Below are positions 5,765 to 63,106 of a DNA stretch of 64,000 nt, in pieces; position 1 is the first letter of the stretch; the number at the start of each line of letters is the position of its first letter. The notes beneath the pieces are model-generated. The model had not been told where the DNA came from, made no database searches, and was given only the letters and a program-made list of their open reading frames with translations. Source of the stretch: Patescibacteria group bacterium UBA7435 (lineage in GTDB: Bacteria > Patescibacteriota > Minisyncoccia > Phycocordibacterales > UBA918). The position numbers and the translations under genes are program-made. The stretch is taken from contig DLQJ01000007.1 of the NCBI GenBank assembly GCA_002477545.1, positions 19,942 through 83,941 on the forward strand, written 5' to 3'.

Positions 5765-7126
5765 ATGAAACGAACACTTATTAAGTCTCTATCAGAGCAT
5801 GTAGAAAAGGAAGTAACAATCAACGGAATTGTTGATGTTGCACGACAGCAAGGGAAGATGGCTTTCTTTGATTTTCGTGACTACACAGGAAAAGTGCAGG
5901 GGGTAGTCTTTGGAAAACCTGAGGTGCTTGAGACTGCCAAAGAACTCGGAAGCGAATACGCAGTTTCTGTTACCGGAATGGTAAACAAACGACCTGAGAA
6001 GATGGTAAATGCTGGAGTCGTTAACGGAGACATTGAACTAGAGATTACTGGAATTGAAATTTTGAATCCAGCAGAAGCTCTGCCATTTGATATGGACGCA
6101 GATTTTGCGATTGATACGCTTCTTGATAACCGTCCACTAACACTCCGACGAGACCACGATCGAGCAGTATTTACCATACAGCATGAGATCGTTACTGCTT
6201 ACCAAGAGTTCCTTGTAGGAGAAGGATTCACCTCATTCCAAGCACCAAAGCTTGTAGGGGGTGATGCTGAAGGGGGAGCTGAAGTATTTAAAGTGAAATA
6301 CTTTAAAGAACGAGACGCCTTCCTCTCAACGAGTCCACAGCTATACAAACAAATTATGGTTGGTGTGTTTGAGCGAGTATTTTCTATTGCTACGGCATTT
6401 CGAGCTGAAAAAAGTGCAACCAGCCGTCATTTAAGTGAATATTCGTCACTTGATATGGAGATGGGATTTATTACTGATCACTTGGATGTGATGCGCGTTG
6501 AAACATCATTGATGAAGCACCTGGTTAAGCACTTGGGCGCACATGCTGTTGATGCATTGAAGACACTTGAAATTGAACTTCCTGCAATCCCTGATGGAGA
6601 CATCATGCCCTACATGAAACTTCGTGAAGCTCAAGAGCTTATCCTGAAAGAGACAGGAGTAGACAAGACAAGTGAGCCTGATCTGGAGCCGGAAGACGAA
6701 CGATGGTTGTGCGAGTATGCGAGCAAGAATCTTGGTTCTGACTTTATCTTCATTACGCATTATCCAGTTTCAAAGCGACCATTCTACACATACGAGGATC
6801 CTGAAGACCTTGGCTTCACGAAGAGTTTCGACCTTCTCTTTCGAGGGGTAGAAATTACTACTGGTGGACAGCGTGTGCATGACTACAAAACACTACAAGA
6901 AAAAATTACTGCAAAGGGAATGAACCCTGAAGATTTTTCATTCTACCTACAGGCATTCAAAAATGGAATTCCTCCACACGGTGGATGGGGAATGGGGCTT
7001 GAGCGATTGACTGCGAAGTTCTGTGGAGTTGCCAACGTAAAGGAAGCAACACTCTTCCCTCGAGACATCAACCGAATTGATGCACTACTTTCTAAGGCAG
7101 AACAGATGCCTGAGGAAACTGAATAA
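5765..7126 (+). CDS. aspS: Aspartyl-tRNA synthetase, archaeal/eukaryotic-type (about 450 aa)
   Basis: N-terminal OB fold. Class II motifs 'FRAEKS', 'GGWGMGLERL' and the flipping loop 'STSPQLYKQ'. Confidence 0.85.
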   Translation: MKRTLIKSLSEHVEKEVTINGIVDVARQQGKMAFFDFRDYTGKVQGVVFGKPEVLETAKELGSEYAVSVTGMVNKRPEKMVNAGVVNGDIELEITGIEILNPAEALPFDMDADFAIDTLLDNRPLTLRRDHDRAVFTIQHEIVTAYQEFLVGEGFTSFQAPKLVGGDAEGGAEVFKVKYFKERDAFLSTSPQLYKQIMVGVFERVFSIATAFRAEKSATSRHLSEYSSLDMEMGFITDHLDVMRVETSLMKHLVKHLGAHAVDALKTLEIELPAIPDGDIMPYMKLREAQELILKETGVDKTSEPDLEPEDERWLCEYASKNLGSDFIFITHYPVSKRPFYTYEDPEDLGFTKSFDLLFRGVEITTGGQRVHDYKTLQEKITAKGMNPEDFSFYLQAFKNGIPPHGGWGMGLERLTAKFCGVANVKEATLFPRDINRIDALLSKAEQMPEETE

Positions 7127-9485: not shown

Positions 9486-9842
9486 TCAAACAGGCTGCTG
9501 AATTTTAATCTTGTTTACAAGATAACCTCTATATTCAAGAGGACGAATAGGTCTTATATCTTCTCTCCTGAGAAGAATAATTCCCTTTTCGTGCACTTCT
9601 AAATGAAATTGGTACCATGGAATTTCATAGATTTCACCAGTTAGATGATCCTCTATAAACGAACATTCACCGCAACATTGTGCAACGTTAGTGATGTAAG
9701 ATCGTAATTCATTTATTCCATTAGTAAATAAATTAAATTCTTGGTTTTTTCGCACATGAACATCAAAATGTCCCCTAAATTGTGTTACGTCTGTTATAAG
9801 TCCTGTCTTCATTACTGCCTCCTCTTTTAAATTTTTGTACAA
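9486..9842 (-). CDS. Hypothetical protein (CCGEC motif), antisense to the scp gene direction
   Basis: 118-aa ORF. No recognised domain. Confidence 0.35.
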   Translation of the reverse strand: MYKNLKEEAVMKTGLITDVTQFRGHFDVHVRKNQEFNLFTNGINELRSYITNVAQCCGECSFIEDHLTGEIYEIPWYQFHLEVHEKGIILLRREDIRPIRPLEYRGYLVNKIKIQQPV

Positions 9843-9940
9843 CTTCTATACTTTGTAATGTACTACCTGCTTATTTTTTGTCAAAAAAAATGCCCCACTA
9901 ATATAATATGTGAGGCATTGTGCTGAAAAATTCAGCTAAT

Positions 9941-10260
9941 CTCCGTTTGAGTTCTGCATTACTAGGACTCCCCCTGTAAATAATTGCGTCCTGGTCAATC
10001 CAGACGCACGCCGGCCAAATCAGATGTTGTTTGAGACTATCGCTGGAGCGATAGTAGTCGGACCACGAATTAGCATGATCTTACTCCTTTTATCAGTTTG
10101 AGCTTTCTTCTTCAATGTGTTGACCATGCGGCCGTTTTCGAGCCAAGAAGCCTACGGGCTCTCTATGGCGATCGCAACTAGCAGTCATATGATGCCAATT
10201 TTCGCGATATCATCACCGCAGGTCAACGCGAATATACTAGCACATAGTATGGTTTTGTCA
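9941..10260. other. GC-rich ORF-free segment with several perfect hairpins; unclassified, candidate structured ncRNA or gene remnant
   Basis: No ORF of 60 aa or more on either strand. Local GC is visibly higher than the flanks. Palindrome 'gactatcgctggagcgatagtc'. No tmRNA tag or RNase P CR-I/CR-V motifs were found by eye. Confidence 0.3.
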
Positions 10261-11928: not shown

Positions 11929-12987
11929 ATGGATATTTCAATCATTAAAATTCTCATCCCTGCAGTGCTTGCTTTTGTTATTGGTATTGGTATCACTCCA
12001 TTGATTACACACTATCTTTATAAATACAAAGTCTGGAAAAAGGAAGGTGGCAAGACTGCAATGAACGGGATGATAGCTACTGAATTCAACCGACTCAAAG
12101 GAGATGGCGAAACAAAAACACCTCGCATGGGAGGTATCGTTATCTGGGGGAGTGTTCTGCTTACTGTACTCTTACTTGCCGTTTTAGGTGAGATGTTTAA
12201 AAATTCGATCTTTGCAGAACTGGATTTCTTTAGTCGTTCTCAAACCTGGATACCAATCTCAACTATGATACTCGGTGCTGCGTTGGGATTTCTTAATGAC
12301 TTTTATGATGTCACTCACCGGCGTGACGGAGTATCAATCCGTGTGCGACTTTTATTGATCTCAATTCTTGCGGGTTCTATCGGTTGGTGGTTTTACGCAA
12401 AGCTAGGAGTAGATACTGTCGGTATCCCATTTGATGGAACATTATTCGTGGGATGGCTTATTATTCCTATTTTTATCATTCTTGCTAACGCACTCTATGC
12501 GAGCGGTGTGATTGATGGTATTGATGGTCTTTCAGGTGGAGTTTTTGCGTCAATTTTTATCTCATACGCTGGAGTTGCCGTTATCCAATCACAGTTAGAT
12601 ATCGCAGCATTGTGTGCGACCATCGCAGGGGGTATTCTTGCATTCTTATGGTTTAACATTCCTCCTGCGCGTTTCTGGATGACTGAAACAGGTAGTATGG
12701 CATTAACACTCACACTTGCGGTAATTGTCTTCATGACTGATAGTCTGGGAGATGGTAACGGTATTGCACTTCTGTTTATCATTGGTCTACCACTTGTTGC
12801 AACTGTTATTTCAAATATTGTTCAGGTCATCTATCGAAAGGTAACAGGAAAGAAGTTATTACGTATTGCACCATTACATCACCACTTTGAGGCCATTGGA
12901 TGGCCCTCATATAAGGTGACTATGCGGTATTGGATTATTAGTATTTTCTGCGCTATTTTCGGTATTATTATTGCTGCAATTGCATAA
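11929..12987 (+). CDS. mraY: Phospho-N-acetylmuramoyl-pentapeptide transferase
   Basis: 'TPRMGG', 'LNDFYDV' and 'DGIDGL' MraY motifs. Polytopic. Confidence 0.9.
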   Translation: MDISIIKILIPAVLAFVIGIGITPLITHYLYKYKVWKKEGGKTAMNGMIATEFNRLKGDGETKTPRMGGIVIWGSVLLTVLLLAVLGEMFKNSIFAELDFFSRSQTWIPISTMILGAALGFLNDFYDVTHRRDGVSIRVRLLLISILAGSIGWWFYAKLGVDTVGIPFDGTLFVGWLIIPIFIILANALYASGVIDGIDGLSGGVFASIFISYAGVAVIQSQLDIAALCATIAGGILAFLWFNIPPARFWMTETGSMALTLTLAVIVFMTDSLGDGNGIALLFIIGLPLVATVISNIVQVIYRKVTGKKLLRIAPLHHHFEAIGWPSYKVTMRYWIISIFCAIFGIIIAAIA

Positions 12988-12993
12988 CTTCCT

Positions 12994-14094
12994 ATGAATA
13001 AGAACGTAGATCGTACATTATTGGTTATTATCATCACGTTAGTAACGCTTGGCTTTTTCATATTCTCTTCAGCGTCACTTGGGCTTCTTGCACGAGAAGG
13101 GGCGCATTTTTCTTCTGTAGCATTTAGCCAAATTGTCTTTGGAATCATAGGAGGGGGAATCGGGATGTTCCTGACCAGTCAGATTTATTACCGTAATTGG
13201 CGACGTTTTGCCTTCTATATATTTCTCGGGACTTGCCTGCTCACCCTGGCGGTTTTCATCCCAGGCATAGGATTCGAACATGGAGGAGCACACCGTTGGC
13301 TCATTGTGGCTGGATTTTCATTTCAACCAGCTGAACTCTTGAAGATCGGATACATCATCTATATGGCCACTTGGTTATCTGGAACGCAAAAACAAGTAGC
13401 GACATTTAAAAACGGCGTACTACCGTTTCTTGGCATCACTATGGTAGTAGGGATTATTTTATTACTCCAACCAGACACTGATACCTTCTTACTCATGGGG
13501 ACCGCGGGATTGGCAATGTTTGTGACCGCTGGAGGTAGATGGCGTGACGTTGGACTCATGATGCTTTCAGGGGTAGTGCTACTTGCGCTACTTGCATTTA
13601 GTCGTCCATACATCATGGATCGAATCACCACATTCCTCGACCCCACAACCGACCCGCAAGGAAGTAGTTACCAAATTCAGCAGTCACTTATCTCTATTGG
13701 CTCAGGTGGGTTTGCAGGGCGTGGGTTTGGACAAAGTATCCAGAAATTTGAATACCTACCCGAGCCTATTGGAGACTCGATCTTTGCCGTCTTCTCTGAA
13801 GAATTTGGATTTATCGGAAGTGTCTTTCTTATTGGACTGCTTTCGTTCTTTACCTTTCGCGGATACAAGATTGCTTCACACGCAAGCGATCTCTTTGGGA
13901 TGTTACTTGTAGTGGGATTCATGACCTTAATTGTTATTCAGGCATTTTTAAACATAGGCGCCATGCTCTCGTTAGCGCCACTGATGGGATTGCCGTTGCC
14001 GTTTGTCAGTCACGGGGGGACAGCCCTGTTAACGACACTTATTGCAGTGGGAATTGTACTTAACGTATCCAAGTACCAAAAGAAAGGGTTATAG
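12994..14094 (+). CDS. ftsW: SEDS-family peptidoglycan glycosyltransferase FtsW/RodA
   Basis: 'PAELLKIGYIIY' and 'SDSIFAVFSEEFGFIGS' SEDS signatures. Confidence 0.85.
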   Translation: MNKNVDRTLLVIIITLVTLGFFIFSSASLGLLAREGAHFSSVAFSQIVFGIIGGGIGMFLTSQIYYRNWRRFAFYIFLGTCLLTLAVFIPGIGFEHGGAHRWLIVAGFSFQPAELLKIGYIIYMATWLSGTQKQVATFKNGVLPFLGITMVVGIILLLQPDTDTFLLMGTAGLAMFVTAGGRWRDVGLMMLSGVVLLALLAFSRPYIMDRITTFLDPTTDPQGSSYQIQQSLISIGSGGFAGRGFGQSIQKFEYLPEPIGDSIFAVFSEEFGFIGSVFLIGLLSFFTFRGYKIASHASDLFGMLLVVGFMTLIVIQAFLNIGAMLSLAPLMGLPLPFVSHGGTALLTTLIAVGIVLNVSKYQKKGL

Positions 14095-17428: not shown

Positions 17429-18751
17429 ATGGTAAAATATATACATATTCTTATGTGTACACGTACGATAGCTGTTTTTATTTTGGGTCTTTTAATAGCT
17501 CCGCTTTTGACTGTGGGTACGCATTTTGCGCAGGCACAAAGTGAGGTTCAAAAACTCCAAGGGCAAATTACTGAACGCAATGACCGACTGTCAGATATTG
17601 AAAAAGAAATTGCAGAGTACGAAGCTGCGCTTAATGAAGTTGGGGCTGAGAAAGACACACTGCAGCGAGCAATTAACCAGCTTAGTCTTGAACGCAAGAA
17701 AGTACTTGCCGACATCAGTTACACTGAAAATAAAATCTCTTCAACCGATCTCACCATCAACAAACTCACTCTTGAAATTGGTGTTGCAGAAAAAGATATT
17801 GCTCGTAACGAAGAATCCATTAAGGCAATCTTACGCAAATTTAATACGGCTGACAATGAATCATTCATTGAGGTATTCTTACGTCAAGAAAATATTTCAG
17901 CTTTTTGGAATGAATTTGAAGAACTTGAAACAGTAAAGGAAACAATGTTCCTTCAAATCGAGGATCTTAATGAATCAAAATCGATCCTTGAGCAAAAACG
18001 ATCACAAAGCACCTCTGAGCGAAGTAACTTGGTAGATCTTAAAGATCAGTACGACGACCAACAGAGTATCCTTGCTCATAACACGGCTAACAAATCAAAC
18101 CTGCTTTCAGCGACTAAGAATGAGGAAGCTAGTTATCAAACACTACTTGAACAAAAGAAAAACGCTCGCGATACACTCTTAGCTGAAGTTCGTGACATCG
18201 AATCACAGATTCAATTTATCCTAGACCCAAATACTATTCCAACTCCAGGAACTGCAGTATTTCGCTGGCCATTGGACAGTCCGTATATCACACAGTATTT
18301 CGGGTATACCAAATTCGCACAATCAGGAGCCTACGGGGGAAGCCAGCATAATGGTATGGATCTTGGTGCACCTATTGGCACAAAACTCTATGCGCCATTA
18401 ACAGGGACAGTACGAAACGTTGGGAACACTGATGCGGTACCTGGTTGTTATTCATGGGGACAATGGCTTTTGATTGATCATCCTAACGGTCTTTCTTCTA
18501 TGTTTGCTCATTTAAGTCAAATCTCAGTCTCACCAGGACAGAAGGTAAACACGGGAGATATTGTTGGGTATGTTGGGAGCACAGGATACTCAACAGGTCC
18601 TCACCTACACTACACGGTATATGTAACTGATGGAGTACAAGTAAAACAATTCAATCAGTTTAAGAAGGTGACAGGTTGTGGGGCAGCATTGTCACCGTTC
18701 GCTGCAATTGATGCGTACTTGGATCCGTTGGATTATTTGCCGACACTGTAA
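17429..18751 (+). CDS. M23/LytM peptidase with long N-terminal coiled coil (EnvC-like)
   Basis: 'HNGMDLGAPIGT' and 'GSTGYSTGPHLHY' M23 motifs. Confidence 0.8.
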   Translation: MVKYIHILMCTRTIAVFILGLLIAPLLTVGTHFAQAQSEVQKLQGQITERNDRLSDIEKEIAEYEAALNEVGAEKDTLQRAINQLSLERKKVLADISYTENKISSTDLTINKLTLEIGVAEKDIARNEESIKAILRKFNTADNESFIEVFLRQENISAFWNEFEELETVKETMFLQIEDLNESKSILEQKRSQSTSERSNLVDLKDQYDDQQSILAHNTANKSNLLSATKNEEASYQTLLEQKKNARDTLLAEVRDIESQIQFILDPNTIPTPGTAVFRWPLDSPYITQYFGYTKFAQSGAYGGSQHNGMDLGAPIGTKLYAPLTGTVRNVGNTDAVPGCYSWGQWLLIDHPNGLSSMFAHLSQISVSPGQKVNTGDIVGYVGSTGYSTGPHLHYTVYVTDGVQVKQFNQFKKVTGCGAALSPFAAIDAYLDPLDYLPTL

Positions 18752-18782
18752 CAATGGGCACGCCCCTTGCGTACTACTATAT

Positions 18783-20183
18783 ATGAATGAATCACAAGCA
18801 ACACAAATAGTAATACTTGGAGGAAGCGGGGATCTGGCAAAGCGGAAACTTATTCCAGCACTGCTTGATCTCTATGTGCACAGAAAACTCCCTGACGTTT
18901 TTTCTGTTATCGGGTTAGCTCGAACACCTCGAAGCGACGAAGAGTACCGACAATTTGTAAACGACTCCCTTACAGCCCATGAACATGGCCATAGTCAAGA
19001 AGATATTTCTGCATTTTGTTCACGTGTATCATACATCTCTGGATCTTTTGACGACCCACAAAGTTACCAGACACTTAAAACTTCTTTAGATTCATTTTCT
19101 GATTCACAAAATGTCTGTACTAACAGGCTTTTTTATCTTGCGGTACCACCACAATATTACGAAACTATTTTTGAATATATTCACCAAACTGGGCTCGCGG
19201 AAAATTGCTCTGATGGGGAAGGGTGGGCACGTATTTTAGTTGAAAAACCATTTGGTCACGACCTTGAAACTGCACAAAAACTCGATCAAAAACTAAGCTC
19301 TTTGTTTACAGAAGATCAGATCTTTCGTATTGACCACTATCTTGCGAAGGAAGCGGTACAAAACATACTTTCATTTCGTTTTGCCAACACACTCTTACGA
19401 TCACCTTGGAACAAGGAACACGTGAAAGAAGTACGGATCACCATGCATGAAGATATCGATGTCCAAGACAGAGGAAATTTTTATGACGGTATCGGCGCGT
19501 TGCGCGACGTGGGGCAAAATCATCTACTGCAATTACTTGCTCTAATAACTATGGACGAACCTCAGGAGTTTACCGCAAAAAATATTAGAAAAAATCGAGC
19601 AGAAATTCTTAGTGCACTTATTCCCTTTACAGACCAAACAATACAAACACAACTACAACGTGCTCAGTACGAAGGATATACCAATACTACAGGTGTCGAT
19701 GAAAACTCAACGACCGAAACATTCTTTGCGCTTACCGCATATCTAGACACTGAAACTTGGCAAGGAGTACCGTTCCACATAGAAGCAGGGAAGGGGATGG
19801 CAGAAAAGAAAGTTTCTATTGAAATAGTATTTAATGATGTTGCATCAGGTTTGTTTGAAACTGACAGCTGTCACACCATACAAAACAAAGTCGTACTACA
19901 AATTTCTCCCGAGCAGAGTATGCATATTACACTCAATGCAAAAATGCCTGGGACAGGATACCAAATGGAATCACGCACACTTTCATTTGACTGCGATAAA
20001 TCAACACTAGAAATCAGTGCCTACGAAAAAGTCTTACTTGACTGCATTTCAGGTGACCAAACACTCTTTACACAGACCGAAGAAGTACTTGCATCTTGGA
20101 AATTCATAACTTCAATTCTTGAACGTTGGGGAGATCAAGAACTGCATATATATCCAAAGGGAAGTAAGACTCCTGTACAATAA
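18783..20183 (+). CDS. zwf: Glucose-6-phosphate dehydrogenase
   Basis: 'ILGGSGDLAKRKL', 'EKPFGHDL' and 'RIDHYLAKE'. The start was set at MNESQ because the longer ORF overlaps the upstream gene. Confidence 0.9.
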   Translation: MNESQATQIVILGGSGDLAKRKLIPALLDLYVHRKLPDVFSVIGLARTPRSDEEYRQFVNDSLTAHEHGHSQEDISAFCSRVSYISGSFDDPQSYQTLKTSLDSFSDSQNVCTNRLFYLAVPPQYYETIFEYIHQTGLAENCSDGEGWARILVEKPFGHDLETAQKLDQKLSSLFTEDQIFRIDHYLAKEAVQNILSFRFANTLLRSPWNKEHVKEVRITMHEDIDVQDRGNFYDGIGALRDVGQNHLLQLLALITMDEPQEFTAKNIRKNRAEILSALIPFTDQTIQTQLQRAQYEGYTNTTGVDENSTTETFFALTAYLDTETWQGVPFHIEAGKGMAEKKVSIEIVFNDVASGLFETDSCHTIQNKVVLQISPEQSMHITLNAKMPGTGYQMESRTLSFDCDKSTLEISAYEKVLLDCISGDQTLFTQTEEVLASWKFITSILERWGDQELHIYPKGSKTPVQ

Positions 20184-20193
20184 GATTATATTT

Positions 20194-21111
20194 ATGAAAA
20201 AAGAATTAACTTTTATAGGACTCGGAAGGATGGGAGCAGCAATGGCAGCAAATCTTGTTGAGCAAGACTACACAGTACACGGGTACGATGTGGACGACAA
20301 AGCGCGGTCTTCAGCAGATGTTGATGGTGTCATCGTACACAAAACACTTGAGGAGGCAGTTTCTACATTGCAGACACCTCGTACTATCTGGCTGATGCTC
20401 CCTTCAAAATATGTTGACGCTACACTCAAACAATTACGTCCTTTACTCACCTCAGGTGACACTATTATTGATGGAGGCAATAGTTTCTTTAAAGACTCAA
20501 TACACCGCCACAATGATCTCATGGCGGAGCCGATTCATTTTCTTGATTGTGGCACCTCGGGTGGTGTTAGCGGTGCACGTAATGGCGCATCTCTTATGGT
20601 TGGTGGACCAAAGGAAATTGTAAAGCAGCATGAACATATTTTTACTGCACTTGCCATAAAGGATGGGTACGGGCACGTTGGAGGTTCTGGTGCAGGACAC
20701 TTCGTAAAAATGGTACACAACGGCATTGAATACGGCATGATGGGTGCAATTGCTGAAGGAATTAATGTACTACATCATCATAAAGATGGCCTAGACTTAA
20801 ACATCAACGAAACACTCAAACCGTACCAACACGGGAGTATTATTGAAAGTAATTTAATGAACTGGATTTCTGATGCATATCACCTTGATGGGTATTTAGA
20901 AAAAATTGCCGGGGAAGTACCTACGGGAGAAACAGAGATGGAGATGGAGTATTTGATAGACCACGAAGATGTGCGGGTACTTGACGCGGCTGTACTACAA
21001 CGTAAACTGACGCGAATAGAACCCTCGTTCATTGGTACTCTTATTTCTGCAATGCGTAATCAATTTGGAGGTCATAAAATAGTAGACAAGGAGCCTGTTG
21101 ATACCGAATAA
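20194..21111 (+). CDS. gnd: 6-phosphogluconate dehydrogenase, short (YqeC/Gnd-like) form
   Basis: 'FIGLGRMGAAMAANL' Rossmann motif and 'GTSGGVSGARNG'. Confidence 0.8.
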   Translation: MKKELTFIGLGRMGAAMAANLVEQDYTVHGYDVDDKARSSADVDGVIVHKTLEEAVSTLQTPRTIWLMLPSKYVDATLKQLRPLLTSGDTIIDGGNSFFKDSIHRHNDLMAEPIHFLDCGTSGGVSGARNGASLMVGGPKEIVKQHEHIFTALAIKDGYGHVGGSGAGHFVKMVHNGIEYGMMGAIAEGINVLHHHKDGLDLNINETLKPYQHGSIIESNLMNWISDAYHLDGYLEKIAGEVPTGETEMEMEYLIDHEDVRVLDAAVLQRKLTRIEPSFIGTLISAMRNQFGGHKIVDKEPVDTE

Positions 21112-21116
21112 CTAAT

Positions 21117-21827
21117 ATGTCTATACCTAACATGCTCAATATCATGAAAGACACTGCGCAAGCAGTATCTGTTGCATTAGAGACTCACAAAAACAGTGAG
21201 GTGCTTCTGCTACTTGCCGGCGGCTCTGCACTGGATGTGCTTGAATATGTGGACACAAGTAGTATTAATGAATACACAACGATCATGATGATGGACGAAC
21301 GCTTTTCGAGTAAACCAGATGAAAATAATTACCTACAAATGAGTAAGTCATCCTTCTTCGAAAAAATTACTAAAAATGAAGCATACACCATTCCAACAGT
21401 TCCTGAGGAAGGGGAGACTTTAGAAAGTTTTGCTGAAATACTAAACAATACCCTACATACCTATTTTTCTGAACACCCAAACGCAACTGTACTTGCTTTG
21501 TTTGGCATAGGCGCAGATGGGCACACTGCAGGTATTTTTCCAATGAAGAATGTGGACTTTGTTGACACATACGGGCAAGGAGAGCTGTACGTACCAGTAC
21601 ACACAGCTCCAGCACCCTTTACACAACGATCGAGCATTACACCAAAATGCATTATGCAGCATGTAACAACTGCCTTTGTATATGCAGTGGGAGCAGAGAA
21701 AACTGCTATTTTGCAAACATTACATGATCCATATGAACTACATGAACTTCCTGCATATATCCATACACAAATTGAATCAAAGATTTTTACTGACCTTCCT
21801 TTGCAAAGAGAGCAAACTAGCACATGA
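21117..21827 (+). CDS. pgl: 6-phosphogluconolactonase
   Basis: 'LLLAGGSALDVL' and 'FGIGADGHTAGIFP' GlcN6P-deaminase/Pgl family motifs. Confidence 0.8.
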   Translation: MSIPNMLNIMKDTAQAVSVALETHKNSEVLLLLAGGSALDVLEYVDTSSINEYTTIMMMDERFSSKPDENNYLQMSKSSFFEKITKNEAYTIPTVPEEGETLESFAEILNNTLHTYFSEHPNATVLALFGIGADGHTAGIFPMKNVDFVDTYGQGELYVPVHTAPAPFTQRSSITPKCIMQHVTTAFVYAVGAEKTAILQTLHDPYELHELPAYIHTQIESKIFTDLPLQREQTST

Positions 21828-22312
21828 TGCAAAATTTATTACTTACCAAAACCAACAGTGCGATATTTACTCTAACTATACTTCTGATTGGATCTTCAAC
21901 GTTTATATATACAAACAATAAACACAGCGTTTCTAATATTGAAGATTTCGAGTCTCCTGTAGCTGCATGTATTCAAGCACTTCCTAAGAAAAAGAGGAGC
22001 AGTCACTACGAGTCCATAGTAGTACAGATCAACACAGATCTACAAAAAGACATCATCCTTAAAGAAACCGACACTACCTATTGCAACAAATTTGGATGTG
22101 CATACGAACTGTGTCTTATCACGAATACTTCTGCCGAAATAATTCCTTTTGGGTATACAGCTAAACGTCTAGTTGTAAAAAATACACACAACAATGGTTT
22201 ATACGACATTCAACTACTTGGGGAGCAGGCAACAGACCTTCAATGGGACGGCAACCAGTACATAATTAGTGGTCACTCACAGATTACAGAACCTGCAGAG
22301 CATTACCACTAA
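21824..22312 (+). CDS. Hypothetical membrane-anchored protein, ATGA-overlapped with the pgl stop
   Basis: N-terminal TM helix. No recognised domain. Confidence 0.4.
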   Translation: MMQNLLLTKTNSAIFTLTILLIGSSTFIYTNNKHSVSNIEDFESPVAACIQALPKKKRSSHYESIVVQINTDLQKDIILKETDTTYCNKFGCAYELCLITNTSAEIIPFGYTAKRLVVKNTHNNGLYDIQLLGEQATDLQWDGNQYIISGHSQITEPAEHYH

Positions 22313-22385
22313 AAGTTATTTAAATACTAAGGGTCGCACAATATTTCTACATAGGGAAGTGCAGTCGGTTGGGAAGATAGCTAAA

Positions 22386-22418
22386 ACAACTCAATCTTGA
22401 GTTGTTTTTAGCATTACA
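22386..22418 (+). terminator. Hairpin terminator after the zwf-gnd-pgl operon
   Basis: 'aaaacaactcaatcttgagttgttttt'. Confidence 0.55.
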
Positions 22419-22868
22419 GCAGCAACTCTGATACTCAGAGTGTTCCAGGATGAAAAAACAGGTACTAAGGTACCAGTAGAAATTTTTTGGCAAAAATTAT
22501 TTTGAAAATTTGAAATTATTTTTTGAAATAAATATACACGACTCAATACTCAAGCAGAAAGTTTTAAGATGCTTAGAATCCATTACAGAAGCGTGAAATA
22601 CAAGCAAAATGGATAATTATAGATATTATCTACATAAGCCTAATTCGATTCAATATGTTACTTATAGGTACATTAGGTCACAAAAGTACACTGTACGACG
22701 TGTATTAGGATGCTCTTACTACAAACATATCTGTTTGCGACGTATACACATGGCTTTGCCATTATGTATACGTCGCAAAAGATATATTGTGCGACGCTTA
22801 TAAGAATAGTTACGCTTGTACAATAAGCCCTTCCCGACTATAGTGTGCGTATCAACAAGGAGGTTAAA

Positions 22869-22988
22869 ATGATTTGGATAAAATCTATCACAGCAGTTCT
22901 TTTGTTTATCGCAGTTTCGGGATGTACTGCTCCATGTAATACAGGTTCAGGCCCTCTAACAATGTTCTTCGAATCTGTTTGCGATTAA
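22869..22988 (+). CDS. Small (39 aa) putative lipoprotein
   Basis: RBS 'aaggagg' about 7 nt upstream of the ATG. Signal peptide plus lipobox 'AVSGC'. Below the ORF-track size cutoff. Confidence 0.35.
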   Translation: MIWIKSITAVLLFIAVSGCTAPCNTGSGPLTMFFESVCD

Positions 22989-23045
22989 AGAAATTTCACA
23001 TAACAACAAAAGCGCCAAACGGCGCTTTTACTCTATTCCCCTTCC

Positions 23046-27888: not shown

Positions 27889-28287
27889 CTAGAGCGTTGG
27901 TGTTCCGGGTATTGTGGGTACTGTGGTGGTCCCAAACAATCCTCCTGCGATGATATTCACAATTCCCCAAATGGAAACCATGAGCACAAAGCCGATGATG
28001 GCATATGTTATTAGTTGTTTCCCTTTCTCTCGTTCTGCCTCATTTCCTCCACCAAGGATGAAGTACTTAAACATTCCGAACACAAATACCAACAGGGCAA
28101 GTGTGAATAATAACGGGATGAGAATGTTATCTATAAAACCTCCGATGTTTGTAAAAAATGTATCTACCTCTCCAAAGTATTGTTGTGCAGATGTCACTAT
28201 TGGCATTAACAGGATCAACATTGCATACTTCCCTATTGTTTTCTGAGCTTTATTCATATTAGTTATATTACCGTATACAGCTATCAT
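27889..28287 (-). CDS. VirB2/TrbC-like pilin-family small membrane protein (paralog 1)
   Basis: Signal peptide, TM1, charged loop 'GGGNEAEREKGKQ' and TM2 'GFVLMVSIWGIVNIIAGGLF'. Near-identical core to the next gene. Confidence 0.45.
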   Translation of the reverse strand: MIAVYGNITNMNKAQKTIGKYAMLILLMPIVTSAQQYFGEVDTFFTNIGGFIDNILIPLLFTLALLVFVFGMFKYFILGGGNEAEREKGKQLITYAIIGFVLMVSIWGIVNIIAGGLFGTTTVPTIPGTPTL

Positions 28288-28290
28288 TAT

Positions 28291-28662
28291 CTACGCACCA
28301 ATATCAGGTCCTGATGGAGTGTTTGGCGGTGTGTTATCAGGAAACAATCCTCCTGCGATAATATTTACAATTCCCCAAATAGAAACCATAAGAACAAAAC
28401 CAACTATCGCATACATCACTAGTTGCTTTCCTTCTTCTCGAGCTGACTCATTACCTCCGCCAAGAATAAAGTACTTGAATACGCCATATAGGAAAACCAG
28501 TAGTGCTATGGCAAAAATAAGCGGAATAAGTACTGAATTAATAAACCCGCTTATGTTATTAAAAAATGTATCTACCGTTCCAAACTGAGCTAATGCCATA
28601 ACTGGCAGAGCAAAGAGACTTCCAACAATTGCTATTCTTTTCATATACACAGTATATAGCAC
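28291..28662 (-). CDS. VirB2/TrbC-like pilin-family small membrane protein (paralog 2)
   Basis: Same architecture. The shared block 'LLVF.YG.FKYFILGGGNE.AREEGKQL..YAI.GFVLMVSIWGIVNIIAGGLF' is also similar at the DNA level. Confidence 0.45.
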   Translation of the reverse strand: MLYTVYMKRIAIVGSLFALPVMALAQFGTVDTFFNNISGFINSVLIPLIFAIALLVFLYGVFKYFILGGGNESAREEGKQLVMYAIVGFVLMVSIWGIVNIIAGGLFPDNTPPNTPSGPDIGA

Positions 28663-35698: not shown

Positions 35699-35748
35699 AC
35701 GTTGCCATAAGTATAGGAAATTTAGTATGAGTAAAATCTAAAGAAAAA

Positions 35749-35771
35749 TGTGTAAGGGTAGCCCTTACACA
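35749..35771. promoter_or_regulatory. Perfect 10-3-10 palindrome TGTGTAAGGG-TAG-CCCTTACACA (candidate operator) in the divergent promoter region
   Basis: Seen directly. The same half-sites recur twice at 46855-46906. Confidence 0.5.
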
Positions 35772-39129: not shown

Positions 39130-40038
39130 ATGATTCAGCGATTTACACAAAAAAAACTCACCTGGTTGGATGTACTAAATCCAACTACTGAAGATATACG
39201 TGAAATTGCTGCTGAAGCAGGAATCCCCTCAGAATTTACCAATGACCTTACGGTAACCATTCCTCATAATGAGGTCTTCCATGTAAAAGGAGCGCTTAAA
39301 ATCACACTTGATTTTCCTATTGTAAAACGTACGGACATCAACCATCCTCATGAAATCAAATTTATTGTCACAAAGACTCACTTAGTCACTATCCGTTTTG
39401 AGGATATTGAGTCTATTCACCGCTTTGGAAAAGAATTTGAGGTTCTATGTATGCTTAATAACAAACAAGTAACACAACCTATTAATTTGTTTATTACCCT
39501 CCTGAATTACCTATACGATGCAATGTATTTAAAGCTCGATTATCTGGAAACAAAGATGCGTGACATCGAGGAAGAAATATTTAACGAACATGAGCGTGAG
39601 ATGGTATTTGAAATATCGAGTGTGAGCCGTCGCCTAATTACCTTTAAACAAACAATTTCAGCACACGAAAACGCCTTAATGCGTTTGCGCGGCTCTGTCG
39701 GTTTTGCATTTGGTAAGAAATACGAAGAACGTATAAATGAGCTTGAGCATCATTTCCGTAATCTCAATCGACAAGTCTATGCGCTTTCAAGCACACTTGA
39801 TGACCTTCGTGATACCAACATGGCTCTGCTTTCAACAAAACAAAACGAAACCATGAAGATTTTTACCATCCTCGCCTTCATTACCTTTCCACTTACCCTA
39901 TTCACCTCGATGTTTGGCATGAACACCGTTACTACACCGATTGTTGGCCAAGAAGGAGACTTTTGGATTATCTTAAGTGTCATGGCTATTGTTTCTGTTT
40001 TCTTCTTTGTGTTTTTCAAGTATAAGAAATGGATCTAA
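39130..40038 (+). CDS. corA: CorA-family Mg2+/Co2+ transporter
   Basis: C-terminal 2-TM segment with 'MFGMN'. Confidence 0.8.
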   Translation: MIQRFTQKKLTWLDVLNPTTEDIREIAAEAGIPSEFTNDLTVTIPHNEVFHVKGALKITLDFPIVKRTDINHPHEIKFIVTKTHLVTIRFEDIESIHRFGKEFEVLCMLNNKQVTQPINLFITLLNYLYDAMYLKLDYLETKMRDIEEEIFNEHEREMVFEISSVSRRLITFKQTISAHENALMRLRGSVGFAFGKKYEERINELEHHFRNLNRQVYALSSTLDDLRDTNMALLSTKQNETMKIFTILAFITFPLTLFTSMFGMNTVTTPIVGQEGDFWIILSVMAIVSVFFFVFFKYKKWI

Positions 40039-40147
40039 AGTGGTTGGCACCACTTTAGATCTGATCCGAGGGCGAGCGAAGCTCCAGCGATTTGCCCTAG
40101 GAAGGAAAAAATCGGGACATCAATTCACAGTAGTTAAGCAAACTAAG

Positions 40148-40212
40148 AAGCGCAGCGACTATAGTTTTCTTATGTCAGAACCTGTTCTGTCCTTGGGCAG
40201 ATTCTGACCACT
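40148..40212. repeat. Copy A of a conserved intergenic hairpin element (5' box AGCGCAGCGACTAT, an 11-bp stem with one mismatch, loop TTCTGTCCTTGGG)
   Basis: Copy B lies at 43866-43930. The loop and 5' box are conserved while the stem differs by paired changes. Confidence 0.5.
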
Positions 40213-40364
40213 ACGTTCCTTTCTTCATTTAATTTTCTGATCTTTAGGAGGAAATGGTGGGGCGCAGTTTGTATTTCTAACCCTTGTGCTACATAATAAC
40301 TCTTTCGCATAAAATTCACCTGAGTCACATTTGATCCCTCGCATCCATCTGCTACACTACATCA

Positions 40365-42449: not shown

Positions 42450-43856
42450 ATGGCTGACACATCCAAACCATTGGCTCGAAGCCTCCGTACACCGCCTCAC
42501 AATATTGAAGCTGAAAAAGCGCTTATTGGTGCAATCATGCTCAAACCTGAGGTAATGCATGATGTGTCAGTGAATATTTATCCTGAGAGTTTCTATGCTG
42601 ATAAACACAGTCAGATCTTTCAAGCGATTCTTACCATCTTTACCAAAGGTGATCCTATCGATCTTCTTTCGGTAACCACACGTCTGAAGTCTGAAGGGCA
42701 ACTTGACCGTGTTGGTGGAGCAACATACATTAACGAGCTTGTGGACACTGTACCTGCTGCTGGTAACGCTTCATACTATATGGAGCTCGTGCAAGCAAAA
42801 GCAGTTCTTCGGGGTCTTATTCACGCTGCAGACGAGATTGCTGAGATGAGTTACGCAGATCCTGAAAATCTTGACGAAACACTTGATCAGGCAGAAAAGA
42901 AAGTCTATGGAGTAACCAACTCTACCTCAACAGGAAAATTCAAGACCATCGGTAACTCACTTACCGAAGCCTGGGAACGATTTGAATACCTTAGTGCAAA
43001 CCAAGACGAAAAACGTGGAGTGCCTACAGGTTTCCATGCGCTTGATAATGTACTGGCCGGTTTCCAAAAATCTGACCTTATCATTCTTGCAGCGCGTCCA
43101 TCTATGGGTAAAACAACCTTCGCCTTAGACCTTGCGCGTAATGCAGCACTTGAGTACGGAAAGTCAGTTGGTATCTTTTCATTGGAGATGAGTGATCAAC
43201 AGTTGGTTGACCGTATGCTTGCCGCTGACGCGGGAGTAGACTCATGGAAACTGCGTACCGGTAAACTCAATACTGACGCTGAATTCGAAGCAGTACAAGC
43301 ATCAATGGCTAAGCTTTCTGACGCACGCATTCATATTGATGATCAGCCAGGGACAAACATTCTTAAGATGCGTTCTGCGGCACGGCGATTGAAGAACGAG
43401 CATGGTCTTGATCTTCTTATTGTGGACTACCTCCAACTTATGAGTCCTACCAACTCAAAAGCAAGTGACTCGATGACACAACAGGTGACAGAAATTTCTC
43501 GTGCACTGAAGCTTCTTGCTCGTGAACTTGATGTACCGGTGCTCGCACTCTCACAGCTGTCGCGTGCGGTTGAACAACGTGGTGGAAAGCCGAGATTGTC
43601 AGACCTTCGTGACTCAGGGTCTATTGAGCAGGATGCTGACGTGGTGATGTTTATTCACCGCGAGGACAAAGCAAACAGAGACGTTGAATCAGAACGACCA
43701 AACATCGCAGAAATCATGGTTGAGAAACACCGTAATGGTCCAGTTGGGTCAGCTGAGCTATACTTCGACGGTCAGCATGTACGCTTCCTTAATCTGGACA
43801 CGAACCATTCAAGTAATGCGATAGAGCATGCAACAGCACAGGATGATGACTTCTAA
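42450..43856 (+). CDS. dnaB: Replicative DNA helicase
   Basis: 'PPHNIEAEKALIGAIML' N-terminus, Walker A 'ARPSMGKTT' and 'SGSIEQDADVVMF'. Confidence 0.9.
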   Translation: MADTSKPLARSLRTPPHNIEAEKALIGAIMLKPEVMHDVSVNIYPESFYADKHSQIFQAILTIFTKGDPIDLLSVTTRLKSEGQLDRVGGATYINELVDTVPAAGNASYYMELVQAKAVLRGLIHAADEIAEMSYADPENLDETLDQAEKKVYGVTNSTSTGKFKTIGNSLTEAWERFEYLSANQDEKRGVPTGFHALDNVLAGFQKSDLIILAARPSMGKTTFALDLARNAALEYGKSVGIFSLEMSDQQLVDRMLAADAGVDSWKLRTGKLNTDAEFEAVQASMAKLSDARIHIDDQPGTNILKMRSAARRLKNEHGLDLLIVDYLQLMSPTNSKASDSMTQQVTEISRALKLLARELDVPVLALSQLSRAVEQRGGKPRLSDLRDSGSIEQDADVVMFIHREDKANRDVESERPNIAEIMVEKHRNGPVGSAELYFDGQHVRFLNLDTNHSSNAIEHATAQDDDF

Positions 43857-43865
43857 TGAACAAAG

Positions 43866-43930
43866 GAGCGCAGCGACTATTGTGAATTAATGTCGGAAAT
43901 TGTTCTGCCCTTGGGTAATTTCCGACCTAG
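43866..43930. repeat. Copy B of the conserved intergenic hairpin element (10-bp perfect stem gtcggaaatt/aatttccgac, loop GTTCTGCCCTTGGGT)
   Basis: See copy A at 40148-40212. Confidence 0.5.
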
Positions 43931-44083
43931 TGACATACTGTAAGAACGAAGGGTATATTATGAATTTAGTCCCCAATTTCACCTTTTGTCCTAAGGCAAA
44001 TCGCTGGACCTAACAACTCTCAATTCTCCTCTCGCTCCAATGTAACCACCACAACAACCTAAACAACTTTTTACACCAACAAG

Positions 44084-46814: not shown

Positions 46815-46854
46815 AGTCCGACTATTTTACCACGTAATGAAAAACACAAAAATG

Positions 46855-46906
46855 TGTGTAAGGGTAGTCCTTACACAACATATTGTGTAAGGACTACCCT
46901 TACACA
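46855..46906. promoter_or_regulatory. Two inverted copies of the TGTGTAAGG-N6-CCTTACACA palindromic unit, forming a hairpin with a 24-bp stem and a 4-nt loop, directly upstream of rmuC
   Basis: Seen directly. Same half-sites as the 35749-35771 palindrome. Confidence 0.5.
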
Positions 46907-56094: not shown

Positions 56095-56104
56095 TTTCTT
56101 AGTT

Positions 56105-57601
56105 TTACACATCCAAATCAAGTTCCTTCTCTACATCATCTTCGTTAAGATTAAGCGAATCAGCAATTTCTTCGATGATATCGTCCTCGTCTTCGTCTTC
56201 GTCAAATGTAAACTTCACGTCCACATCAGATTCAAAATACACACGAACTAGGAATGTTGAACCATTAAGTGAGGTAGTTATCTTATCAAGATCCCCATAA
56301 TCAAATTCAACAAGATCTTCAATATCATCTTCGTCCATATCTAATTCATCTGCAATTTCCTCGATAATATCTTCTTCGTCTTCGTCTTCAACAGTGAATT
56401 TTTCATCATCGCCATTGTCATATTCAACTTTCACTCTTGCTTCACCTTCTTTAATGTCTACTTCAATGACATCAATGTCGTCTGAATTGTTGCCACCACC
56501 TCCAATCTCATCAACAGCTTCCTCAGCGAGATCTTCAGCCTCTTCGGCTAATTCTACAGCTTCGTCATATTCTTCGTCATCTAAAGCATCACGTGCCTCA
56601 TTGTATAACTCGCGCGCTTCGTCGTAGAGTTCATCTGCATCGTCAATATCGTCACCATCATCATCTGCTTCCTTAATTTCATCTCGTGCCTTATCGATTG
56701 CTTTATCAGCATCTTCAATTGCATCTTCAGCATCGTTTTCATCTGAATTGTTACTTGATTTTTTTGAATCAAAATCTAAGTCATCTTCATCAATAAGTGA
56801 TCGAACTTCAGATTCTGATGCTCCAAGTTTCTTCGCAATCAATTCAATAAGGTCATCTCCATCCTCAGGGTACAAGATGATATCACGGTTACGTGTACCA
56901 TTTGTCTGGTAACTTCGCACAATATACTCGTCATCGTCATTAGACAACGTAATTGATCGCACTACATTTGATGAAGATATCACTGGTGTAGTTACCGGAG
57001 TCTGGGTTGTAGATGCTCCTGCAACAACTGGTGCGGGTACTGACTTCTTGAGTACGTCTTCTGGATAATTTCCAGCTGGATATGCCGCGAAGAACACCTC
57101 GAGCAATGCTCGAGTCGATGGTCCAACTACCCCTACAGGATCAAGGTTAAAGCGTGACTGAAAGAGTTTAATAGCTTCTTGTGTCTTTGGCCCAAAAAAT
57201 CCAGAAGATACTCCATATGGATAGATATCACTATCAGTCGCCAAAAGTGTCTGTATTTTTTTAATATCATCATTAGTGGAACCGTAGGCAAGATCAGTAC
57301 CAAGCGTACTCCCCGCCTGTGATCCCTGTACTGCAGGAGTTGGTGTTGTTACTGATGTTGAAGAAACTAACGCAACTAATTCAGCCCGAAGTGACTGCAT
57401 TTCCGCAATAATTTGATCAATGCGCTCTAAAGCACCTGATACGTCTTGTGCATTTGCTGTATGTGTCGCAAAGGAAAAACCAAGCATCGCAACCATAAAG
57501 AAAGAAAATAACTGTTTGAACATACCCAAAGATTTAAATAATAGTACCTTTATTATACCTTGGCTGACACAGCCAGCAAATGCACTCGTACACATACCCA
57601 A
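56105..57601 (-). CDS. Secreted peptidoglycan-binding-domain (PG_binding_1-like) protein with highly acidic repeated C-terminal modules
   Basis: Signal peptide, coiled coil, 'IKKIQTLLATDSDIYPYGVSSGFFGPKTQEAIKLFQ', then two or more repeats of '...KFTV/FDEDEDEDDIIEEIAD.L...EDD'. Confidence 0.55.
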   Translation of the reverse strand: MGMCTSAFAGCVSQGIIKVLLFKSLGMFKQLFSFFMVAMLGFSFATHTANAQDVSGALERIDQIIAEMQSLRAELVALVSSTSVTTPTPAVQGSQAGSTLGTDLAYGSTNDDIKKIQTLLATDSDIYPYGVSSGFFGPKTQEAIKLFQSRFNLDPVGVVGPSTRALLEVFFAAYPAGNYPEDVLKKSVPAPVVAGASTTQTPVTTPVISSSNVVRSITLSNDDDEYIVRSYQTNGTRNRDIILYPEDGDDLIELIAKKLGASESEVRSLIDEDDLDFDSKKSSNNSDENDAEDAIEDADKAIDKARDEIKEADDDGDDIDDADELYDEARELYNEARDALDDEEYDEAVELAEEAEDLAEEAVDEIGGGGNNSDDIDVIEVDIKEGEARVKVEYDNGDDEKFTVEDEDEEDIIEEIADELDMDEDDIEDLVEFDYGDLDKITTSLNGSTFLVRVYFESDVDVKFTFDEDEDEDDIIEEIADSLNLNEDDVEKELDLDV

Positions 57602-57649
57602 AAGGCAGCCATATGTGGCTGCCTTTTGGGTTGCGACTTGATTTAGTTT

Positions 57650-58570
<921 letters not shown>

Positions 58571-62390: not shown

Positions 62391-62500
62391 GTCGTAACCA
62401 ACTCAAGTATCACATAAGTTTGAACTAGTGCCCTGATCACGTTTTTTGACATGGTATAGTAAAAATATCGTAGAGACTATTACATATAATATCTATAGTT

Positions 62501-63106
62501 ATGAAACAATACCGAATGTATGTAGCGGAGTTTATTGGAGCAGGTACACTTTCTCTGGCGGTTCTTCTTTCCGTTAGTACTGAACTGGGAACACTCGCAA
62601 CCCCCATCCTTGCAGCCTTAGTCCTTGGACTCTTTGTCTATACCATTGGAGGTGTTTCTGGATGCCACATCAACCCAGCAGTTACATTGGGCGTGTACGC
62701 ACGAGGGAAAATTAAGCTGGCACAAACTGTAGGATATATTGTTGCGCAATGTCTAGGCGCATTTGCGGCGATATTAATAGTAAGCAACACTGTTATGGAT
62801 CTAAGTGGGTACACAATGACTACACCAGAATCAATGAGTGTCTTTATTGCTGAATTTATAGGCATGGCCTTATTTACTTTCGGTATCGCAAGCGTTGCTT
62901 TCGGTAAGGTATCTCAGGTTGCTTCAGGAGTAGTTATCGGAGGTTCCCTACTCTTAGGAATCACAGTGGCATCATTACTCGGCTCAGCTGGGGTACTTAA
63001 TCCTGCAGTTGCATTAGCGCTGGGGACAGTAAGCTACAGTTATCTAGGTGCGATGATCTTAGGATCAATTGCTGGTATGCACTTGCATGGATGGCTGTGT
63101 GAGTAA
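62501..63106 (+). CDS. MIP-family channel (aquaporin-like), short form
   Basis: Two NPA boxes, 'HINPAVTLG' and 'LNPAVALA'. Confidence 0.8.
   Translation: MKQYRMYVAEFIGAGTLSLAVLLSVSTELGTLATPILAALVLGLFVYTIGGVSGCHINPAVTLGVYARGKIKLAQTVGYIVAQCLGAFAAILIVSNTVMDLSGYTMTTPESMSVFIAEFIGMALFTFGIASVAFGKVSQVASGVVIGGSLLLGITVASLLGSAGVLNPAVALALGTVSYSYLGAMILGSIAGMHLHGWLCE

Follow-up and report, generated by a model that had tools for sequence, protein, structure and literature searches.

A dispersed two-hairpin repeat in intergenic spacers of Paceibacterota and Kaiserbacteria with the features of a non-autonomous mobile element

Introduction

Two hairpins that resemble each other, one following corA and one following dnaB, are found in a 64-kb stretch of DNA from a patescibacterial (CPR) genome. 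In the sequence-only reading of this stretch, called the window throughout this paper, they were taken for two copies of a single element consisting of a conserved 5' box and a stem-loop. Both copies were noted to lie immediately 3' of their genes, and the element was read as a functional RNA structure or as a protein-binding RNA or DNA hairpin. This raises the question of what the element is: a regulatory structure that belongs to the genes it follows, or a sequence that came to lie behind them by other means. We addressed the question by comparing the two copies with each other, with their relatives in other genomes and metagenomes, and with the orthologous spacers of related bacteria.

Results

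The two copies in the window

The 14-mer AGCGCAGCGACTAT, which makes up the box, has exactly two occurrences in the window, at 40149 and 43867 and both on the plus strand, where ~0.25 matches are expected even with two mismatches permitted. The sole exact matches to the loop motif TTCTGYCCTTGGG are located at 40185 and 43903. With box and loop exact in both, the presence of two look-alike elements was confirmed, as was their location 3' of plus-strand genes: copy A lies between the genes for CorA (39130-40038) and CysS, and copy B between those for DnaB (42450-43856) and RecR. Overall the two copies are 72% identical. From the sequences and single-sequence folds, their common hairpin, here termed P2, has a stem of 14 bp (including G.U pairing) and a 7-nt loop, UG[U/C]CCUU. 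At stem position 4, copy A has A-U where copy B has G-C, in agreement with the two-sided change described earlier, and the single mismatch that had been seen in the copy A stem is C.A. The view that these are not simple terminators also holds, since no U-tract follows either copy and a terminator scan flagged neither.

The extent of the element had to be revised. The hairpin is real, but the conserved unit begins 14 nt further 5' than had been proposed, and the box is in fact a covarying mini-hairpin within a larger helix, P1. Copy A is a complete 74-nt unit (40135-40208, plus strand) that opens with TAAGCAAACT and closes with TTCTGAC. Its P1 (~40135-40173, plus strand) takes in the box at 40149-40162, and its P2 stem-loop follows at 40174-40208 (plus strand) with the loop at 40188-40194. 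Copy B, likewise a complete unit of 74 nt, occupies 43853-43926 on the plus strand, opens with CTAATGAACA and closes with TTTCCGAC; the dnaB stop codon TAA (43854-43856) falls within its 5' end. Covariance model R2 gave scores of 71 bits (E 6e-14) for copy A and 85 bits (E 4e-17) for copy B. The two-hairpin fold was returned by RNA minimum free energy (MFE) folding for copy A (z -3.8), and MFE likewise gave the fold of copy B. The ends were set by reconstruction of a nested insertion in the case of copy A, and by flank comparison in that of copy B.

Each window copy is adjoined by one older copy. Next to copy A this is a reverse unit that copy A interrupts. Its 3' part (40082-40134, minus strand; covariance model match of 34 bits) contains the 3' strand of P1 (ACTACTGTGAATTGATG) and a P2 with a CU bulge, and its 5' part lies at 40209-40231 (minus strand; reverse complement TAAATGAAGAAAGGAACGTAGTG). 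Copy B is followed directly and head-to-tail by the decayed unit X2 (43927-44009, plus strand), which yielded weak covariance model matches of 11.6 and 17 bits. X2 is orthologous to an intact unit in the dnaB-recR spacer of the relative L010, and the downstream flanks of the two are homologous. The corA stop codon is where a palindromic hairpin of 13 perfect base pairs begins (40032-40061), upstream of the repeat cluster; relatives have other hairpins at this position, and it is probably the real corA terminator.

A repeat family in Paceibacterota and Kaiserbacteria

Copies A and B have many relatives in related genomes, so that the proposed ground for refutation, a total of only two copies, does not hold. 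The box-plus-loop pattern, searched over 185,579 species genomes, identified one more copy, in L001, a Candidatus Paceibacterota MAG. A first covariance model built from these three copies (A, B, and L001) revealed weak relatives directly beside both window copies, and, in two related genomes, divergent but intact copies between dnaB and recR. The pattern common to all known copies was found at 60 metagenome loci. Covariance-model searches gave 75-84 matches; 52 of the 75 were distinct, and the full-length distinct copies numbered 51, from Paceibacterota/Kaiserbacteria contigs. The metagenome pattern fixed 20 positions (ACTAT, GAA, ATGTC, TTCT, CCT), so that conservation at these positions is partly ascertainment, and it left the covarying columns free. 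Among viral contigs there were 0 matches to the family pattern, and a loose P1 pattern gave chance-level matches only, plus one weak match of 27 bits.

The unit is 74-77 nt long, its true 5' start being recognised from flank comparison. Judged by its named relatives, the family ranges over Paceibacterota and Candidatus Kaiserbacteria, and the samples include both marine or saline sites and Rifle groundwater. In the window's own genome, ~84 kb hold three intact copies, located after grpE, corA, and dnaB. Copies A and B were present in every strain sampled.

An Rfam covariance search had been suggested for these hairpins, and no family matched. Rfam 15 gave no match at gathering in the whole window, and a tRNA/tmRNA scan detected no tRNA gene anywhere in the 64 kb. 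Between 40000 and 44200 nothing in Rfam overlapped the copies at E<=10, and one consensus-like copy drew chance-level Rfam matches only. The literature searched for CPR repeats or structured RNAs contained no description of the element. According to Rfam 15 and the searchable literature, the 74-77-nt repeat is previously uncatalogued; we classify it with a known kind, the interspersed structured bacterial repeats.

Two hairpins formed by one strand

The whole unit is occupied by two adjacent hairpins, P1 and P2, that are formed by one strand. Written as DNA, the consensus of the strand that folds reads T[G/A]AATGA-NNN-AAnGAGC-(GTA/GCA/GAA/GNRA)-GCGACTAT-N'N'N'-GAATTTAT for P1, followed by GTCCCGATTTGTTC-TGCCCTT-GGGCAAATCG-CT-GGAC for P2. 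In the outer helix of P1, the 5' end of the unit, T[G/A]AATGA-NNN, pairs with the segment after the box, N'N'N'-GAATTTAT. The interior of P1, AAnGAGC-(GNA or GNRA loop)-GCGACTAT, has a 2-bp mini-stem that is closed by either a GNA triloop or a GNRA tetraloop. P1 is irregular and contains two symmetric tandem G.A motifs; because divergent members have Watson-Crick pairs in place of both motifs, we regard it as one continuous helix. P2 is the hairpin noticed before, with its 14 bp and a loop of the form U-N-Y-C-C-U-U; in most copies its 3' strand has a CU bulge. Even divergent members that lie outside the selection imposed by the search pattern retain the loop motif YCCU[U/A].

The structure was drawn by hand and then tested on an alignment of the 51 distinct full-length copies. 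In this alignment 93.3% of the base-pair cells were paired, and 20 of the 27 pairs tested had changed on both sides (164 cells). The observed score was reached in 0 of 500 shuffles, and when the partners were moved by 1-3 columns pairing was only 28-47%. The NNN/N'N'N' triplets are complementary in ~15 different versions, the mini-stem occurs as GC/GC, GU/AC, AC/GU, and AU/AU, and MFE folds of single copies gave the same two hairpins. These data verify a conserved, covarying structure, as had been proposed, far beyond what two copies could show. Some units are longer (~135 nt) and carry an extra hairpin between P1 and P2, with the extra conserved segment TTGCTGGAAAATAAYGACTGWAAGGAATATATTTTCTGTATGCAGAGCC (L017 1948-2082, L051 ~6745-6865, and L028 1801-1835 plus 1910-2007). 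These long forms may be an ancestral or an alternative version of the element.

Two U.G wobbles near the apex of P2 are almost invariant, and a G.U pair is common in P1; read on the complementary strand, the same wobbles are A.C mismatches. With RNA parameters the predicted folding energies were -22.8 kcal/mol for the sense strand vs. -14.6 kcal/mol for the antisense strand, whereas with DNA parameters both strands folded about equally and the P2 apex was predicted to be open. The change of wobbles into A.C mismatches on the complement, together with the strand difference under RNA parameters, indicates that the fold belongs to one strand. In its details the modelled fold resembles RNA somewhat more than DNA, although single-stranded DNA also forms GNA mini-hairpins, sheared G.A pairs, and G.T pairs. 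Two further structural readings were rejected. A pseudoknot joining the P2 loop to the 5' AGGAG displayed no covariation. A K-turn or box C/D motif (AUGA...CUGA) was discarded because the apparent boxes are a product of the variable triplets that pair, and because the G.A motifs form symmetric 2x2 loops.

Genomic context and orientation

All matches are intergenic. Between co-directional genes there were 19 sense and 10 antisense distinct copies (~2:1); six more were located between convergent genes and four between divergent genes. The antisense copies had covariance model scores as high as the sense copies and were structurally intact. As about one third of the copies between co-directional genes are antisense yet intact, an RNA that is read out with the upstream gene and acts only in cis is disfavoured. 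No protein family recurred among the neighbours, which are unrelated housekeeping genes (nrdB, SIMPL protein, nusG/rplK, clpP, RNase Y, rpsS-like, grpE/dnaK, corA/cysS, and dnaB/recR). Relative to the sign of the local GC skew the two orientations were represented by 8 vs. 10 copies, in short loci where skew is confounded with gene strand.

In three related genomes a reverse unit, antisense to the gene, abuts the ATG of an rpsS-like gene (L013 7600-7686, L027 3314-3400, and L020 8236-8322), and several compensatory differences are seen among these retained units. The 5' leader of the rpsS-like gene is therefore the antisense of the element, without a Shine-Dalgarno sequence. Two reading frames meet a stop codon at the 5' end of the unit, which provides or overlaps the stop of upstream genes such as dnaB and grpE; upstream ORFs often run into the unit. 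Promoter and terminator scans flagged nothing at the window copies, and the flanks of the 51 copies displayed no promoter-like or T-run signal, the 12 nt downstream of the unit mostly containing 1-3 T only. The motif AGGAG was considered as a Shine-Dalgarno sequence and rejected: it lies 21 nt from the ATG, is variable (ACGAG, AAGAG, AGAAG), and the neighbouring genes are without Shine-Dalgarno sequences.

Empty sites, nesting, and tandem copies

The corA-cysS-dnaB-recR synteny was present in three relatives, with CysS identities of 88%, 79%, and 77%. None of the three (L010, L011, and L012) has a unit in the corA-cysS spacer. The dnaB-recR spacer is empty in L011 (8 nt), contains a plus-oriented unit that starts at the dnaB stop in L010 and a minus-oriented unit in L012, and in the window holds copy B and then the decayed unit. 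Units have thus been gained, lost, replaced, and inverted at orthologous spacers. With related spacers empty, occupied, or inverted, and copies in either orientation, we rejected a cis-regulator tied to corA or dnaB. In L010, the closest relative, dnaB was called as two ORFs of 335 and 136 aa (11929-13356), which could be a frameshift or an assembly error. The same relative has a Ham1-like gene (9520-9984) between corA and cysS, at the position of the window's repeat cluster.

Copy A is nested within the older reverse unit. Deletion of exactly 40135-40208 joins ...GTAGTG to ACTAC..., and the restored unit is 76 nt long, aligns to the family consensus without gaps, and has no duplicated target. 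Further nested copies in L028 and L046 have the same unit ends as in the window case. Removal of the nested copy in L028 restores the P1 of the host unit, and in both loci insertion took place in a reverse-oriented P1, at the G^A step within its other tandem G.A motif. Tandem copies abut exactly and head-to-tail, the closing GGAC of one being joined to the opening TGAATGA of the next with no spacer. Beyond the unit ends, flank information is ~0 except for T at position -1 (39/51; 0.7 bit) and C at position +1 (28/51). The favoured insertion junction is T^C, which includes the G^A steps in the P1 of resident copies that lie in reverse orientation.

A conserved 4-5-nt target abutting the left end was not found among the 51 copies, where information is confined to position -1. 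There are no terminal inverted repeats, as T[G/A]AATGA at one end bears no inverted-repeat relation to GGAC at the other, and the nested-insertion reconstructions revealed no target-site duplication. A permutation test for direct repeats flanking the unit (p ~0.06) owed its value to the tandem copies and was not significant without them; direct repeats of the unit 5' end in the 3' flank were seen at tandem copies or remnants only. In the loci examined, no copy was split into a P1 and a distant P2 on either side of an ORF. No gene for a transposase or an HUH protein was detected in the vicinity of the copies or among the window ORFs examined, no RAYT (Y1 HUH) gene was seen in ~0.5 Mb of loci, and no reverse transcriptase was seen near the copies.

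A two-copy element tied to its upstream genes was not sustained: the copies belong to a dispersed repeat with sharp ends that is polymorphic in presence and orientation and forms tandems and nested insertions. In the proposal of a functional RNA or protein-binding hairpin, the conserved structure stands, and a link to the upstream genes does not.

Other features of the window

A second small palindromic repeat, TGTGTAAGGGTAGCCCTTACACA, unrelated to the first, has three intergenic copies at 35744-35771, 46850-46877, and 46879-46906; the latter two are adjacent and lie between the RmuC and P-type ATPase genes. At 62448-62508, upstream of a MIP-family gene, there is a weak likeness to P1 only (ATCGTAGAGACTATT; 14.7 bits, E 0.3) that is probably due to chance. 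The GC skew changes from positive to negative at ~18000-23000, and genes are on the plus strand up to 22312 and on the minus strand from 23046, which looks like a replication terminus or the boundary of a large inversion. Two tandem paralogous ORFs of 132 and 123 aa (27889-28662, minus strand) have in common a 243-nt repeat of 74% identity and are set in a 2.3-kb stretch without a long ORF. Finally, two adjacent genes at 56100-58050 (minus strand) contain poly-Asp/Glu tracts that are encoded by long runs of GAT/GAC/GAA-type codons.

Discussion

We consider it somewhat probable (roughly 55%) that copies A and B represent a non-autonomous, REP/MITE-like mobile element whose folded single strand is what is recognised. 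The fold would be kept because a trans-acting mobilisation enzyme recognises it on the single strand, and the covariation among copies would then reflect selection on transposition-competent master copies. Mechanistically, the closest model would be "peel and paste" chemistry of the HUH/Y1 type, as in the IS200/IS605 and REP-RAYT systems. An HUH-type mechanism is favoured by the absence of inverted repeats and of target duplication, by the sharp ends, by the one-strand fold, and by the clustering of copies and their insertion into one another. By analogy with these systems, we infer that mobilisation of single-stranded DNA hairpins by an HUH enzyme is the most likely mechanism. Points against it are that no such enzyme turned up near the copies or among the window ORFs examined, that neither a 4-5-nt target nor, in a weak test, a replication bias was detected, that P1 and P2 are dissimilar, and that the fold has RNA-like details. 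Co-transcription of a unit would place a stable double hairpin in the 3' or intercistronic part of the RNA; mobility and an RNA-level role of the folded strand can coexist.

Among known systems, the REP/REPIN-RAYT elements of proteobacteria are likewise short, intergenic, and multi-copy, occur in both orientations, and are often clustered. Their imperfect hairpin also has conserved mismatch or wobble positions kept by compensatory change, and they are without terminal inverted repeats and target duplication. The unit described here differs in being twice as long, in having two dissimilar hairpins, and in its CPR host, and its copy density looks like tens per genome, not hundreds. No RAYT gene accompanies it in the ~0.5 Mb of loci, and it has no invariant GTAG 5' of the hairpin; GTAG is present in the unit only as the loop of the commonest mini-hairpin variant, other copies having GCAG, GAAG, or GCAAG. 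The PATEs derived from IS200/IS605 are comparable in having no terminal inverted repeats or target-site duplication, structured ends, a functional fold on one strand, and precise excision and insertion. Unlike in PATEs, the hairpins here are terminal and not subterminal, P1 and P2 are dissimilar, the left flank has only T^C and no conserved tetra- or pentanucleotide target, and no autonomous partner with the same ends was found. IS200/IS605 elements display an orientation bias relative to replication, whereas none was detected here (8 vs. 10 copies, a weak test on short loci).

The BOX elements of Streptococcus pneumoniae and the MIRUs of mycobacteria are, like the present family, modular and highly structured intergenic repeats of small genomes. 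They too occur in both orientations and in tandem, often at gene ends over stop codons, and no mobilising enzyme is known for them. Neither has sequence or module similarity to this unit: BOX elements are built of boxA/B/C modules and MIRUs are tandem minisatellites with in-frame mini-ORFs, whereas this unit has a fixed length of 74-77 nt plus a long form of ~135 nt. Classical MITEs (Correia/NEMIS, RUP, and ERIC) resemble it in being small, non-autonomous, and intergenic and in forming RNA hairpins on transcription, but they have terminal inverted repeats and a target-site duplication (e.g. TA), both of which are missing in this element.

Two other assignments were tried and rejected. Integron attC sites were dismissed because the unit has no inverse core RYYYAAC, though some left junctions read G|TTRRRY, and because the nested junction is incompatible with a G^TT crossover. 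A TIGR array or an IS110 bridge RNA does not agree with copies that are dispersed among housekeeping genes, nor with variable triplets that pair with each other in place of being exposed in loops. Those systems, which are also reported in CPR bacteria, have another organisation, with a regular array or an IS-end RNA beside the gene of a Nop-domain Tas protein or of an IS110 recombinase, and with unpaired guide segments (PMC12045711).

The main rival to a mobile element is a cis-acting RNA module, useful to the host, that has spread to many transcripts and may serve there in stabilising 3' ends or intercistronic RNA, in RNase processing, or in protein binding, with selection acting on the RNA fold. 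GNRA loops, tandem sheared G.A motifs, and conserved U.G wobbles are typical of RNA, the strand asymmetry of folding appears with RNA parameters only, and the loop YCCU[U/A] persists even in divergent members that no pattern selected. The 2:1 sense bias between co-directional genes is consistent with such a module, and so are the many sense copies whose start coincides with the stop codon of a well-expressed housekeeping gene (dnaB, grpE, nusG, and nrdB). We nevertheless regard it as unlikely, if worth serious consideration: ~1/3 of the copies are antisense to both neighbours and intact, one of them at the rpsS start codon in three genomes, and the fast gain, loss, and inversion at orthologous spacers are ill-suited to a function required at each site. 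Nested and tandem copies are, moreover, hard to account for by function. If the copies were instead stand-alone genes for trans-acting small RNAs, which pair the C/U-rich P2 loop with purine-rich mRNA sites, one would expect their orientation to be free relative to the neighbours, as is observed, and the loop CCCUU/CUCCUU does resemble an anti-Shine-Dalgarno sequence. This is very doubtful given that there is no conserved upstream promoter or downstream terminator (flank information ~0, scans empty), that tandem copies abut without a spacer, and that upstream ORFs often enter the unit.

More doubtful again is an RNA-mediated mobile element, either a structured RNA copied back by a retroelement enzyme or a ribozyme-like insertion. 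Precise insertion without target duplication would suit it, as would a unit exactly as long as the RNA-like fold, and CPR genomes are rich in introns and retroelements. However, no ribozyme family matched even at E<=10, the fold supported by covariation amounts to two plain hairpins with no catalytic-core-like junction, and the neighbourhoods of the copies revealed no reverse transcriptase. Hardly credible, finally, is an ordinary intrinsic terminator, operator palindrome, or small coding ORF. The hairpin does lie immediately after genes, but it has no U-tract, and the conserved wobble positions make the DNA palindrome imperfect. ATG-initiated mini-ORFs can be read in some copies (MSExVL..., or MKKGA-stop from the 5' end), but a mini-loop of 4 nt destroys both the frame and its stop, neither of which is conserved, and the compensatory changes alter codons, e.g. 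TGA to CGA between copies A and B. The mini-ORFs were accordingly rejected.

A more far-reaching possibility, which we advance tentatively and think on balance improbable, is that the repeat stands for something new. This could be a bacterial mobile-element class with a 74-77-nt RNA-like two-hairpin unit and precise T^C insertion, including at the G^A steps of other copies and without duplication; its agent would be either an RNA intermediate or enzymes of a family that has so far not been connected with substrates of this kind. Or else it could be an abundant protein-binding CPR RNA that hitch-hikes on mobility. If the mobilising activity is a single-strand-specific nuclease/ligase that needs only T^C, it would be a possible tool.

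Returning to the favoured reading of a structured mobile repeat, the strong covariation provides a ready covariance model for annotating copies and for typing and linking metagenome contigs, and phylogenetic profiling with this model could find the partner enzyme or an RNA-binding protein. The genomes of CPR/Patescibacteria are tiny and usually described as repeat-poor; here, active structured repeats reshape the intergenic spacers. A repeat family that supplies stop codons and replaces its own older copies gives a handle on the genome dynamics of unculturable organisms.
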